A DNA stretch of 55,376 nucleotides, taken from the NCBI RefSeq assembly GCF_003334255.1, contig NZ_QOWU01000035.1; one strand, given 5' to 3'. Below, piece after piece: positions 41,262-44,450 of the stretch. A program made the position numbers and the translations under genes. The number at the start of each line of letters is the position of its first letter. The first letter of the stretch is position 1. Below the pieces are notes generated by a model that was not told the origin of the DNA, searched no databases, and saw nothing but the letters and a program-made list of their open reading frames with translations. This DNA comes from Escherichia coli. GTDB taxonomy: Bacteria > Pseudomonadota > Gammaproteobacteria > Enterobacterales > Enterobacteriaceae.

Positions 41262-41544
41262 GGAAGAAGTTTTTGTAAGCCCGCTCAGGGTCTTTCAGTG
41301 ACTGTTGCAATGGCTGTGAGGGCGAATCTTTAAGCCATTGCGTTTCAGTGGCATTTTTCCACTCAACCAACCAGGAAGCCATTTTCCCGTAAGGGATGTA
41401 TTTATTACCGGCCTCATGATTCTCATTCTGAAGCGCCAGAGCACGATTGAAAACGAAACGACATGCGCCTGCGAAGCGCCTCATTTCACGCTCCTGTTGA
41501 CCACCTGGTCTTAACCGGAATTTGAATGCCTGTAGTCGTTTCAT
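41262..41544 (-). pseudogene. tnpB: tnpB (IS605 OrfB/TnpB-type) 5' fragment, about 95 codons
   Basis: Translation MKRLQAFKFRLRPGGQQEREMRRFAGACRFVFNRALALQNENHEAGNKYIPYGKMASWLVEWKNATETQWLKDSPSQPLQQSLKDPERAYKNFFR matches the TnpB N-terminal region as I recall it; the RuvC-like and zinc-finger regions are absent. Confidence 0.7.
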
Positions 41545-42090
41545 GGGCCAAATCATACTTTGGCCTATGAAAAAAGAAACCGATATCCGACGCGGAAGGC
41601 ATTGTGTTTTCCTGAAGCATGTTCACCTAGTCTTCGTTACTAAATACCGACGTCAGATTTTTGACCATGACGCGACAGAAAAACTACGCACTTACTTTTC
41701 AAATGTATGTGCTGATTTTGAAGCTGAACGGGTTGAAATGGATGGCGGACCAGATCACGTCCATTTGTTAATTAACTATCCTCCCAAACTGGCGATATCC
41801 AGTCTGGTAAACAGCCTCAAAGGCGTATCGAGTAGGTTACTGCGACGAGATCGACCAGATATTGCAGTCAGGTATTACGACAAAGGCGTTTTGTGGAGTC
41901 CTGGCTATTTTGTCAGTAGCTGCATCTTAACGTATCAACTAGATTTAATAACAACGATATCCGTACCTAACCGGATATCTAATGTCATAAGCATCCCTTT
42001 AATTATCCCCTCAACCTCTTGTAACTTTCCCACTCTTGAGCTCCACATAGTCCAAACGCCGGATGCAAAAAAATCACACGTGCATTTCTG
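41262..42090. mobile_element. IS200/IS605-family insertion sequence remnant (divergent tnpA and 5' fragment of tnpB); boundaries approximate
   Basis: Divergent ORFs encoding a HuH Y1 transposase (TnpA) and the first ~95 residues of a TnpB-type protein, fused directly to yedK codon 142; the right boundary cannot be fixed from sequence alone. Confidence 0.7.
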
Positions 42091-42091
42091 A
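41567..42091 (+). CDS. tnpA: IS200/IS605-family transposase TnpA (HuH Y1 transposase); C-terminal ~55 residues look atypical, possibly truncated or fused
   Basis: MKKETDIRRGRHCVFLKHVHLVFVTKYRRQIFD...GPDHVHLLINYPPKLAISSLVNSLKGVSSRLL...YYDKGVLWSPGYFVSSC contains the HuH motif (HVHLL) and catalytic Tyr region; the ORF runs to 42091, longer than the ~140-155 aa typical of TnpA. Confidence 0.7.
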   Translation: MKKETDIRRGRHCVFLKHVHLVFVTKYRRQIFDHDATEKLRTYFSNVCADFEAERVEMDGGPDHVHLLINYPPKLAISSLVNSLKGVSSRLLRRDRPDIAVRYYDKGVLWSPGYFVSSCILTYQLDLITTISVPNRISNVISIPLIIPSTSCNFPTLELHIVQTPDAKKSHVHF

Positions 42092-42247
42092 AATTGTGAT
42101 GGAGGAAGATAGTATCAATTATATGTGCTTAGAAACGTCCCCGATTAGCGCAGAAGTCACCGGATTGTTCAGACTCCAATAGGTTGAGTATGCCGTATTT
42201 ATTTTCCAAAATAAAAATCGATGCTGTTGCTCCTTCATAAAATACTT

Positions 42248-43045
42248 TTACTCTCTGGACGCTTTTCTTAGCTCTCTTGGTGTTATCTTAAAACGATTAT
42301 GGAACCTTTCAGTAAAACGAGAAGGACACTTGTAACCATTTTCCCTGGCAATCTCGCTGATGGGTTTTACTGTCGTTTGTATAGCAGACAACGCATTATT
42401 TAACCTCACGTCGTCCAATATACTTTGAAAACTTACTCCCTCGCTTGCCAGACGGCGATGCAATGTGGAAACAGAAATGTAGAGATATCTCGCTACCTTG
42501 TTTGCTGTCCATTTTGTTCCAGGTTCGGATAGCATTAGGTTATAACAACGACTTATTAATGATTGTTTACTATCTGATAAAAGTAAACAATTAACATGAT
42601 GTGCTCCTAATGAAAGTAGAACGCCCATTGCTAAGTGTTCCTGAATTTGCGTTGAGAAGCCTCGGGAAATAGATGTTTTTAGTTGCTCCCAACAATATAT
42701 TAACTCGGGGTTCTGAGGTAAGCAGAAACCTGTCGTGTTACGAATTTGATCAGTTATCGCATAAAATTTTTGAAACTTTTCAATTAGATCAATGGGATAA
42801 TAAAGCATTTCTGCAAGATAAAGACCTGCTTCTGGATAATTCGCAATATAAAATTCATATCCACAGGGAAATAATATTATCTGATTATTATCAACAGTTA
42901 GACTATGCGTCTCCCAATTGATAACTTTTTTTCCCTGACGGATACGACATAAAGCTGGCATAAGAGGCTTAACCCTGTGAATCTCATGATGTTTATGCAT
43001 CCGTATTTCTTCAATCTTTAGGTTAGTCTTATCTTTTGCCAGCAT
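42248..43045 (-). CDS. AraC-family transcriptional regulator (YbcM-like, prophage-associated)
   Basis: 265-aa ORF with C-terminal AraC-type helix-turn-helix (...[48 protein letters not shown]...). Confidence 0.85.
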
Positions 43046-43054
43046 ACTCTTACC

Positions 43055-43606
43055 CTACTTTATCTCATAAACTGGTGTTATCTCAGCGGTTGCAATTTTA
43101 TTGGCATTAAGCATATAACCAACTAACGCTCCGCTGGAATTAGAATCCACAGGAATTTTATCAGTTTTTAGAGCCCATACTTTAAACTGGTAATGATGGG
43201 GTTTATCTCCTTTGGGAGGACATGCTCCACCAAATCCTGCATAACCAAAATCATTTCGGCCTTGAACAGCACCAGTCGGAAGTTTTGTACCATCACGTCT
43301 TCCTGCATCAGCGGGCAAATATGTTACAGTTGCTGGAATATTAGCAACAGTCCAGTGCCACCATCCACTGCCTGTAGGAGCATCTGGATCATACACAGTT
43401 ACGGCAAAGCTTTTGGTGCCTTCAGGAGCACCAGACCAGGTTAATGAGGGCGATGTATTACCACCTTCACACCCAAATCCAGAAAATACATGAGACGTTG
43501 TAAGTTGCTCTCCTGTTTTTATTTCATTACTAGTGACCTGAAATGCTGCGGCCTGCGCAGAAAATGTTATGAATGCCAATACACTTGAAACGATAAGTTT
43601 TTTCAT
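43055..43606 (-). CDS. ybcL: Periplasmic PEBP/RKIP-family protein (YbcL-like)
   Basis: 183-aa ORF with signal peptide MKKLIVSSVLAFITFSAQAAA and phosphatidylethanolamine-binding-protein family signature; same size as the YbcL I recall. Confidence 0.85.
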   Translation of the reverse strand: MKKLIVSSVLAFITFSAQAAAFQVTSNEIKTGEQLTTSHVFSGFGCEGGNTSPSLTWSGAPEGTKSFAVTVYDPDAPTGSGWWHWTVANIPATVTYLPADAGRRDGTKLPTGAVQGRNDFGYAGFGGACPPKGDKPHHYQFKVWALKTDKIPVDSNSSGALVGYMLNANKIATAEITPVYEIK

Positions 43607-43774
43607 AAAAACCTCATTGTTGTGACCTATCGTTATTTTATTTGATGTGCCTTGATCTCATTATGCATAAAGGCGCAATGATCGCGCAAATGCAATCATA
43701 ATTATAAAGGTGCCCCGAACATTAGCCATAATATGCACAAATCAGATTCCTGTTATCTCAAGGATAATTATTTT

Positions 43775-44107
43775 TTAATGCGGTGCACTTCGTGACAACA
43801 AGTTAATGACTAACACACCGGCACAAATCAACATCATGCCTATGATAGCTGGCAGGTCCAGTCGTTGACCAAAAAATCCCCAGGAAAGCAAACTAATCAG
43901 AACGATACCGACGCCTGACCAGATAGCATAAGCAATCCCTGTAGGTATATAAGCCAGCGTCTGAGCTAATAACCAGAATGATGCACAATAGCAAATAATT
44001 GTGCCAACAGAGGGCCATAACCGTGTAAACCCCTCTGAAAACTTCATTAAGGTTGTACCAATGACCTCTGCAAGTATTGCGCCACCAAGATAAATATAAG
44101 GGTTCAT
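43775..44107 (-). CDS. emrE: Small multidrug resistance efflux protein EmrE
   Basis: 110 aa from the internal Met: MNPYIYLGGAILAEVIGTTLMKFSEGFTRLWPSVGTIICYCASFWLLAQTLAYIPTGIAYAIWSGVGIVLISLLSWGFFGQRLDLPAIIGMMLICAGVLVINLLSRSAPH; conserved Glu14; the upstream in-frame extension to 44287 is judged spurious. Confidence 0.92.
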   Translation of the reverse strand: MNPYIYLGGAILAEVIGTTLMKFSEGFTRLWPSVGTIICYCASFWLLAQTLAYIPTGIAYAIWSGVGIVLISLLSWGFFGQRLDLPAIIGMMLICAGVLVINLLSRSAPH

Positions 44108-44450
44108 AGCATATTCTTTCCTGTTCATACTGGAGAGAATTGTACTACAGTTTGAACACAACTCACCGTTTTCATCCTGGTGTATGTGTATCCAGGGGGC
44201 TCTGGCGTGGCAAGAGATAAAGGCAGGAACAATAATGATCAGAAGGAACCCCAGGCTAACGAATGAGTTCACTCTTCCTGGGAGCAAAGCGAAGACAAAA
44301 CATGTTATCGCGTTTACGGATCGTGGATGGCAGAAAACTTTCAGGATCAGGTATCCATTTTAAACCAGAAATTGAGTGAGTTTGCCCCATCCATGCCCCA
44401 CGCTGTGGGATCGGATATAATAAACAAGCATAGTCAACAGGTTACAAAAC

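Follow-up and report, generated by a model that had tools for sequence, protein, structure and literature searches.

A probable lambdoid prophage remnant at the 3' end of fliE retains intact emrE, ybcL and ybcM in Escherichia coli

Results

A decayed island between yedK and fliE

The window (the whole stretch of Escherichia coli DNA analysed, 55,376 nucleotides of contig NZ_QOWU01000035.1, assembly GCF_003334255.1) carries at positions 41274-44450 what is very probably all that remains of a DLP12-like lambdoid prophage integrated at the 3' end of fliE. In this fliE-side element the passenger genes emrE, ybcL and ybcM are intact and the rest of the phage has decayed; about 2.5 kb of phage DNA survives in the window. 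The GC content inside the island is 0.36-0.45, against 0.50-0.58 in the flanks. The element has one att core, no intact integrase and neither IS end. Because the window holds a single att core and no late or structural gene, the prophage origin rests partly on sister loci from other strains. A first-pass annotation, made from the sequence, had described an accessory insertion that departs from the K-12 state, and this is borne out, as K-12 has yedL, a yedN pseudogene and an intG pseudogene there. Its gene placement was also confirmed: a cut yedK, a tnpB fragment, a divergent HUH tnpA, and ybcM, ybcL and emrE on the minus strand. The features of the locus are as follows.

40836..41273, plus strand: yedK', the first 142-146 codons of a SRAP gene (full length 222), a pseudogene by deletion
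41254..41544, minus strand: tnpB', the first 97 of 402 codons, IS609-like (mechanical ORF 41215-41556)
41262..41273: deletion junction 1, joining yedK codon ~146 and tnpB codon ~97 at a short imperfect microhomology
41567..41923, plus strand: tnpA', an IS609-like Y1/HUH transposase gene cut at codon 119
41924..41926: deletion junction 2, joining tnpA codon ~119 to a point that, in sister loci, follows the phage porin gene by 181 bp
41938..42027, minus strand: Q', the 30 codons at the 3' end of a quuD-like lambdoid antiterminator gene (Q)
42073..42132, minus strand: ylcH', a pseudogene with an internal stop
42248..43045, minus strand: ybcM, an intact AraC-family regulator of 265 aa (RefSeq name ybcM)
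43055..43606, minus strand: ybcL, an intact periplasmic PEBP/RKIP-like protein of 183 aa, with Ala99
43762..43765: site of the absent ylcJ-ybcK (recombinase) segment, 2.08 kb, present in DLP12 and PhiR70_1
43775..44107, minus strand: emrE, an intact SMR transporter of 110 aa
44108..44183, minus strand: emrE upstream region, common to lambdoid phages, with homology that takes in 9 bp of the ren 3' end and goes no further
44200..44309, plus strand: int' fragment 1, from the interior of a tyrosine integrase gene, about aa 240-277
44288..44433, plus strand: int' fragment 2, the last ~47 integrase codons, equivalent to K-12 intG'
44451..44470: att core CTACACCTGCATGGACATCA, 20 bp, comprising the fliE stop codon and the last six codons
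44451..44765, minus strand: fliE, intact, its 3' end overlapping the att core

No Rfam family matched in the island, either in a scan of the whole window or in one of positions 40500-45100 (E up to 0.1). A repeat search of the window returned short repeats at chance level; it found no second att copy, and none of the IS605-type hairpins for which the earlier annotation had proposed a search. Literature searches on a prophage beside fliE and on the three passenger genes found no paper on the yedK-fliE island. The island is an ordinary, already annotated element of a known kind and discloses no new kind of biology.

Phage fragments and an attachment site border the passenger genes

The first-pass annotation had seen here a module without integrase, attachment site or phage genes. 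That statement is wrong: tblastn and blastn revealed two integrase fragments, the 3' end of Q and the ylcH pseudogene, and a 20-bp att core lies at 44451-44470. No structural or late gene and no intact integrase is present. The Q' fragment is 83% identical to the 3' end of quuD (blastn) and 67% identical to QuuD aa 98-127 (tblastn), and the same fragment is present within the Q gene of phage PhiR70_1. Beyond the 3' end of ybcM, homology to DLP12 continues as far as position 42041. At the other side of the passenger genes, int' fragment 1 shows 74% identity to the int gene of phage IdasGreatGrand by blastn, and by tblastn 44136/44200-44309 corresponds to aa 210-277 (40% identity, E 1e-9 to 1e-10). 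Fragment 2 is 97% identical in nucleotides to the 3' end of the same int gene, and its positions 44288-44428 encode aa 387-433 at 81% identity (tblastn). The integrase gene beside the att core is a pseudogene, in which about aa 278-386 and aa 1-209 are missing. The 3' fragment of int' was found in 5160 of the 5426 complete E. coli genomes surveyed, 'empty' sites included. It may stem from the same integration event as the passenger genes or from an earlier one.

Homology to phage on one side and to chromosome on the other stops exactly at the att core. The attP core of IdasGreatGrand is identical to it, and over the 3' end of int plus the attP core the window and this phage are 97% identical. 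In the window the core is single, allowing up to 3 mismatches, so that direct repeats do not flank the island on both sides. A left att copy exists in the sister locus L008 and in UTI89 (imperfect 20/21-bp repeats), 16 bp after the yedK stop codon, and falls within the segment that is deleted in the window. In one strain, UTAK-1, a complete P22-like prophage occupies fliE between the same cores, stacked against an older int' remnant. The 3' end of fliE is a lambdoid att site that has been used recurrently.

The passenger genes are intact and keep their phage order

The order int'-emrE-ybcL-ybcM-ylcH'-Q' is collinear with that of DLP12 and of the live phages PhiR70_1, PhiR34_1 and PhiR68_2, at about 90% nucleotide identity; the three phages carry ren-emrE-ybcK-ybcL-ybcM-nin-Q-porin-S-R. 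As the first-pass annotation had proposed, the three genes are homologous to the emrE, ybcL and ybcM of DLP12, with protein identities of 98, 97 and 92%. EmrE matches NCBIfam model NF042984 (SMR_efflux_EmrE) over positions 1-110 of 110 with 240.5 bits (cut-off 226), differs from the K-12 protein at two residues, keeps Glu14 and has a dN/dS of 0.02; a 170-aa ORF with a TTG start reaching 44287 is a mechanical extension of this gene. YbcL matches NF007330 over positions 1-183 of 183 with 401.8 bits (cut-off 277), with a dN/dS of 0.08. For YbcM, the identity to the K-12 protein extends over the full length (dN/dS 0.12), and AraC-type C-terminal HTH models match aa ~153-263 (NCBIfam). Against the DLP12 copies, dN/dS thus spans 0.02-0.12 at dS 0.19-0.40; the three passenger genes are under purifying selection.

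The products would probably act as they do in K-12, with EmrE in proton-coupled efflux of cations, YbcL as a PEBP protein of the periplasm and YbcM in the autoregulation of ybcLM. At YbcL residue 99 the window has Ala, UTI89 Thr and K-12 Val, and we take this residue (position 78 of the mature protein) to be the functional polymorphism of YbcL. For YbcL in uropathogenic E. coli (UPEC), a review speaks of 'a single amino acid alteration' (PMC4810123), and YbcM of K-12 has been described as an AraC-type regulator that autoregulates ybcLM (PMC8464067).

The absence of the recombinase gene between emrE and ybcL, also noticed in the first pass, was verified: the 2.08-kb ybcK/ylcJ segment is lacking, and the blastn blocks on either side (42041-43761 and 43766-44183) correspond to positions 9459-7739 and 5655-5240 of comparison locus L003. 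No informative repeats were found at the borders of this segment or at those of the ybcN-Q deletion. Instead of having been deleted, ybcK may never have existed in the phage lineage of the window.

Many genomes hold both the island and a DLP12 copy (the module occupies a median of 3 places per genome), which could suggest a recent intragenomic duplication of, or gene conversion from, a resident DLP12. The nucleotide identity to DLP12, however, is only 90-92% with dS up to 0.40, ybcK is present in DLP12 and absent here, and the flanks consist of different phage scraps, with Q' only 83% identical and a different integrase; we consider such an origin extremely improbable. The synonymous divergence is deep, so the window element did not arise as a copy of DLP12 but represents an independent prophage, and a dS of 0.19-0.40 rules out a recent move from DLP12.

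We give as little credence to the converse, that the module is native chromosomal DNA of the fliE region, picked up by lambdoid phages through aberrant excision. The module does lie beside att, and capture of the specialised-transduction type happens in principle near att sites, but in phages it belongs to the nin region, with ren on one side and Q on the other, a long way from int and att, and here the Q' and ylcH' scraps accompany it. The GC content of the island is foreign; moreover, the island is missing from about half of the genomes, and 'empty' or K-12-type sites share its breakpoints. A lambdoid prophage integrated at fliE remains the reading we favour.

An IS609-like insertion was added later and is itself a remnant

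At the yedK side, the first-pass observation that yedK stops at codon 142 and is joined to a 5' fragment of tnpB proved accurate. Codons 1-142 (40836-41261) match YedK aa 1-142 at 96% identity (tblastn), and DNA homology to K-12 yedK stops at 41273 (blastn). The SRAP domain is incomplete, matching positions 1-143 of 222 in NF007413 with 324.6 bits, below the cut-off of 349 (NCBIfam), and RefSeq labels the gene 'missing C-terminus'. The yedK and tnpB homology blocks share a 12-bp overlap at junction 1. The tnpB fragment is 95% identical to the TnpB of O157 IS609 over aa 1-97 of 402 (tblastn) and matches positions 1-92 of 389 in guided_TnpB (NCBIfam), so TnpB is not full length.

The divergent HUH tnpA of the first-pass description is likewise real from 41567 onward. 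Its HUH motif (HVH) is kept, and the protein is identical to IS609 TnpA through ...WSPGYFxSSC and then diverges: the C-terminal GGAPISAIRQYIEQQ segment is gone, unrelated sequence standing in place of ...RQYIEQQ. IS homology in the DNA stops at 41923 (transpos_IS200 positions 2-112 of 126, NCBIfam), and the ORF continues into unrelated DNA to 42091. The lost helix contains a Tyr that, as in IS608 TnpA, is presumably the catalytic one; TnpA would thus lack its catalytic tyrosine. The prophage-derived element as a whole is probably immobile now. Subterminal LE/RE hairpin ends are absent from the window, where IS609 homology is internal only and both ends lie in deleted segments.

An IS remnant beside passenger genes, in a window with no intact phage gene, invites the explanation that emrE, ybcL and ybcM moved from a DLP12-type prophage as naked cargo, for instance with the help of the IS200/IS605 element. 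We regard this as very unlikely. Islands of the UTI89 type hold the same cargo without an IS; the insertion point is the yedK stop codon, which is not within the island bounded by att; int', Q' and ylcH' flank the cargo in phage order; and dS against DLP12 is 0.19-0.40. Mobilisation of flanking genes is not known for IS200/IS605 elements. The IS is a later insertion and not the vehicle of the cargo, because UTI89-type islands have the cargo without it. The earlier description of a relocated prophage cargo module was accordingly abandoned in favour of genes in their original phage context, on the grounds of that context, the att core, the deep dS and the IS-free sister islands.

Sister loci form a decay series

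The island of L008 and UTI89 has no IS, retains the phage porin gene and carries the same cargo, with a full yedK in the UTI89 type. L006 has both the porin and an IS609-like element at the yedK stop codon, and L007 has the IS together with an independent porin deletion of its own. The window is the most reduced form of the series, after two further deletions. The cargo has survived at least two independent flanking deletions; L007-type strains and the window lineage each lost the porin on their own.

The first pass had raised the question of whether this gene order might be the common ancestral arrangement in most strains. Among the 5426 complete E. coli genomes, any form of the island occurs in 2597 (48%), and the exact form of the window in ~1100 (~20%), with junction 1 exact in 1111 and junction 2 in 1102; it is thus not the arrangement of most strains. 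About one fifth of complete E. coli genomes are thus natural yedK truncation mutants through the junction-1 deletion.

These comparisons suggest the following history. A DLP12-like lambdoid prophage would have entered the 20-bp attB formed by the last fliE codons through tyrosine-integrase recombination. Successive deletions may then have stripped the integrase interior, xis to ren, ybcN to most of Q, and the late genes, leaving the nin-region passengers emrE, ybcL and ybcM and small pieces of int, ylcH and Q. Later, the yedK stop codon would have received an insertion of an IS609-like IS200/IS605 element. In the window lineage, one deletion probably joined yedK codon ~146 to tnpB codon ~97, and another began at tnpA codon ~119 and took out the phage porin gene. 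The pair would have inactivated yedK and removed the left att copy as well as the two ends of the IS.

Discussion

The locus is a textbook case of a decaying prophage whose passenger genes have outlasted it. Models of IS-mediated relocation, DLP12 duplication and chromosomal origin were rejected for the reasons given above.

Whether the surviving genes have been domesticated and are partly co-transcribed from the class-2 flagellar fliE promoter is a speculative matter, and we think it unlikely. The idea arises because fliE immediately precedes the cargo on the strand that they share and no intrinsic terminator is recognisable in the gap: a promoter and terminator scan found no minus-strand terminator between fliE and emrE, and promoter-like sites were fewer than in shuffled controls. 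Folding of the fliE-emrE spacer gave z = -0.86, no evidence of structure. If the idea were true, expression of an efflux pump and a PEBP protein would be coupled to flagellar assembly.

E. coli lineages differ in the remnant they keep at fliE, which may be the K-12 yedL/yedN/intG type, a near-empty type or the emrE-ybcLM island. In UTI89, the strain in which UPEC YbcL was studied, the ybcL gene next to fliE belongs to the same island. From Q' to fliE its island is 98-99% identical to that of the window, with the same EmrE protein and a YbcL that differs by one residue; UTI89 differs in that yedK is still complete, the left att copy and the porin gene of the phage are retained, and an IS is absent. 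Compared with IS609 of E. coli O157:H7, the window shows 95.8% nucleotide identity over 41260-41923, and tnpB and tnpA are divergent in both, but only an internal 0.66 kb is kept: both ends are lost, tnpB is short of 305 of its 402 codons, and TnpA lacks the C-terminal helix.

In K-12, too, fliE is bordered by the 3' fragment of int' and the att core (window 44304-44470 corresponds to 3564-3720 of K-12 locus L002), and the homologous int' DNA is annotated as the intG pseudogene of 'cryptic prophage PR-G'. There int' lacks 11 bp through a deletion and is 87% identical to the phage, against 97% for the window; the K-12 core is the variant GCATGCTCATCA. Between the same breakpoints, K-12 has its yedL, yedN and intG set instead of the emrE-ybcLM cargo.

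Also among the closest known systems is DLP12, with the order intD ... renD-emrE-ybcK-ybcL-ybcM-ylcH-ybcN-ninE-ybcO-rusA-ylcG-quuD-nmpC. The window element agrees with it in the order and orientation of int, emrE, ybcL, ybcM, ylcH and Q, the cargo is 90-92% identical in nucleotides and 92-98% in protein, and in less decayed sister loci a porin gene follows Q as nmpC does in DLP12. The two differ in the att site, at argU in DLP12 and at the fliE 3' end here, and in the integrase family; the window element lacks ybcK/ylcJ and is a far more reduced remnant.

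Gene content of the yedK-fliE interval

The ORF list and composition profile of the window show GC of 0.36-0.45 across ~42000-44200 against 0.50-0.58 in the flanks. In K-12, fliE is preceded by yedK, yedL and two pseudogenes, yedN and intG. The features here, where a prime marks a truncated gene or pseudogene fragment, are as follows:

left of yedK, yedE and yedF (ORF list)
40836-41273, yedK', normal frame lost after ~142 codons (ORF list)
minus strand, ORF with a TnpB-like start, 113 codons (ORF list)
plus strand, TnpA-like ORF (ORF list)
41938-42027, Q', QuuD residues 98-127 (tblastn)
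42073-42132, ylcH pseudogene (tblastn)
minus strand, AraC regulator (ybcM), 265 aa (ORF list)
minus strand, PEBP protein (ybcL), 183 aa (ORF list)
minus strand, SMR transporter (emrE) (ORF list)
44136-44309, int' fragment 1, integrase residues 210-277 (tblastn)
44288-44428, int' fragment 2, integrase residues 387-433 (tblastn)
right end, fliE (minus strand) and fliF (plus strand) (ORF list)

In NCBIfam, the transporter matches the EmrE model (240.5 bits, cut-off 226), the PEBP protein the YbcL model (401.8 bits, cut-off 277) and TnpA transpos_IS200, while the small minus-strand ORF matches the first 92 positions of TnpB and the regulator groups with AraC-family proteins. Identity to K-12 is 98% for EmrE, 97% for YbcL and 92% for YbcM. 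The ORF list, NCBIfam and the K-12 comparison bear out the gene inventory of the first-pass annotation, including the yedK truncation, the divergently oriented TnpA and the absent recombinase, and RefSeq annotates this arrangement in full. Elsewhere in the window, a C0465 sRNA (5218-5295, Rfam) and a minus-strand tRNA Leu(taa)-Cys(gca)-Gly(gcc) cluster (23519-23821, ARAGORN) are ordinary E. coli features with no relation to the island.

Phage fragments and an attachment site at fliE

We compared the window by blastn with two K-12 loci, yedK-fliE and the cryptic prophage DLP12. Chromosomal homology ends at 41273 and restarts at 44304, within the K-12 intG pseudogene, annotated 'cryptic prophage PR-G'. 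Three blocks are collinear with DLP12: 41933-42031 (3' end of the Q antiterminator gene quuD, 83% identity), 42041-43761 (ylcH', ybcM, ybcL and the ybcL upstream region, 89.8%) and 43766-44183 (emrE, its upstream region and 9 bp of ren, 91.6%). The first-pass annotation had seen neither phage genes nor an attachment site; blastn and tblastn reveal Q', ylcH' and two integrase fragments, and an attachment core shared with IdasGreatGrand lies at 44451-44470. Over 44305-44470 the window shares 97% identity with the 3' end of the integrase gene of phage IdasGreatGrand and 37 bp past the gene, and in a five-way alignment phage and chromosome diverge exactly after CTACACCTGCATGGACATCA, which on the opposite strand forms the last six fliE codons and the stop codon.

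Only this right-hand copy was found in the window. In less decayed sister loci the left edge of the island bears an imperfect second copy, CTACACCTGGATGGACATCA, 16 bp past the yedK stop codon (2222-2242 in sister locus L008); in UTI89 the left and right-hand copies lie at 5514-5533 and 9798-9817. The fliE site is in current use: a full-length integrase abuts fliE in about 6-8 of 5426 complete E. coli genomes, and in UTAK-1 it belongs to a complete P22-like prophage (int, xis, repressor, replication, nin, Q, lysis, terminase, portal, capsid, tailspike) that has the core on both sides, with an older int' remnant, an LRR-protein gene and yedK stacked beside it.

The same two breakpoints hold alternative cassettes in K-12 (L002 1507-3563; yedL and the yedN pseudogene), in sister locus L009 (2222-2461) and in locus L015 (17808-19337), these cassettes including LRR/EspR3-EspR4 effector-like genes and a 240-bp near-empty spacer. 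Every one terminates in an int' scrap, a pattern that suggests repeated use and decay at one attachment site; the complete UTAK-1 prophage is stacked on a remnant of this kind. A 65-codon plus-strand ORF (44327-44524) extends from the integrase scrap through the core and, antisense, into fliE. It owes its existence to the loss of the integrase stop codon through a 1-bp deletion (GATATAA-TAAAC), matches no NCBIfam family and is likely meaningless.

A decay series with a dead IS609 remnant

The IS fragment and IS609 of O157:H7 share 95.8% identity. TnpA keeps its HUH motif and has lost the C-terminal GGAPISAIRQYIEQQ helix, which we take, from IS608 TnpA, to carry the catalytic tyrosine. Neither of the two IS ends is present in the window fragment, so the IS is dead. 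In sister locus L006 an IS609-like element sits precisely at the yedK stop codon (CCTGTTT/GATAAGCC; 2205/3954); the O157 copy likewise has GATAA directly after it, which hints at a preferred IS609 flank.

A spread sample of E. coli matches and four fetched loci, compared by blastn, form with the window a coherent decay series:

L008 and UTI89: full yedK, left att copy, phage S-porin spacer, phage porin gene, Q', ylcH', ybcM, ybcL, emrE, int', att, fliE; no IS
L006: the same plus the IS609-like element (1.75 kb) at the yedK stop codon
L007 (sister locus): IS, with its own porin deletion (L008 2760-3991)
window: L006-like minus two segments
deletion 1: yedK codon ~146 to tnpB codon ~97, junction 41262-41273, short imperfect microhomology
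deletion 2: from tnpA codon ~119 across the IS end and the porin, as far as 181 bp beyond the porin, junction 41924-41926

The window keeps 10 bp (L008 3982-3991) absent from L007, so the porin was lost independently in two lineages. These separate deletions of the porin (annotated ompC, nmpC-like) map to L007 4407-4436 in L007-type strains and to 41924-41936 in the window lineage; despite them, emrE-ybcL-ybcM is retained in every island form seen. All forms share internal scars (no ybcK, a ybcN-to-Q deletion, a gutted int), which are older than the split of the forms.

Among the 5426 genomes, 2597 hold 80% or more of 40800-44900 at a single location, 1111 the exact yedK'/tnpB' junction, 1102 the exact tnpA'/Q' junction, 668 an intact yedK-IS junction and 456 an IS-free left junction. 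The int' 3' fragment adjoins fliE in 5160, even at near-empty (L009) and K-12-type sites, which have the island's two breakpoints (yedK stop + 16 bp and window 44304). From these counts and shared breakpoints, the gene order, checked as a possible common ancestral state, is common yet neither universal nor ancestral.

The window yedK, an SRAP/HMCES-family gene, is a pseudogene; with its truncation in about 1111/5426 genomes, one sequenced strain in five is a natural mutant lacking the C-terminal part of yedK. A 26-bp near-perfect palindrome in the yedF-yedK spacer (40735-40760), a reverse-strand BLAST self-match against every sister locus, is probably the yedEF terminator.

The cargo genes

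All three cargo genes keep their full length. Relative to their DLP12 counterparts, dN/dS is 0.02 for emrE (dS 0.40), 0.08 for ybcL (dS 0.19) and 0.12 for ybcM (dS 0.33); these ratios indicate purifying selection, and a recent copy from DLP12 would be far less diverged. In K-12, YbcM autoregulates by binding upstream of ybcLM, and deletion of ybcM lowers peroxide survival (PMC8464067). UPEC YbcL suppresses neutrophil transmigration, which laboratory alleles fail to do owing to a single residue change (PMC4810123).

UTI89 has a ybcL on the same fliE-adjacent island, and its protein differs from that of the window solely at residue 99: Ala in the window (codon 43310-43312), L006 and L007, Thr in UTI89 and L008, and Val in K-12 DLP12 and phage PhiR70_1. 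In mature-protein numbering this is presumably the 'residue 78' of the literature, and it may be the single-residue polymorphism that decides suppression of neutrophil migration.

EmrE, YbcL and YbcM would be expected to work like their K-12/UPEC orthologues, probably driven by promoters of their own within the conserved upstream regions of emrE and ybcL that DLP12 also has. Read-through from the fliE promoter is conceivable, if speculative, since fliE is upstream of all three genes in the same orientation and the interval yielded no terminator-like site.

Origin of the island and comparison with known elements

The first-pass observation was real, and incomplete in missing int', the att core, Q' and ylcH'. 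Its reading, a relocated cargo module without phage genes, is best replaced by one in which an independent DLP12-like prophage at the fliE attachment site decayed in situ, the IS609 insertion and the two deletions scarring the locus later. The remnant has no intact integrase, a single att core and no IS ends; with TnpA apparently lacking its catalytic tyrosine, it should be unable to excise or transpose.

The island belongs to a known class of element and is found, with annotation, in thousands of genomes. DLP12 has the same order as the window from the fliE side, int'-emrE-ybcL-ybcM-ylcH'-Q'. The live sequenced lambdoid phages PhiR70_1, PhiR34_1 and PhiR68_2 also keep the window order, at ~90% identity, within ren-emrE-ylcJ-ybcK-orf-ybcL-ybcM-ybcN-ninE-ybcO-rusA-ylcG-Q-porin-S-R.
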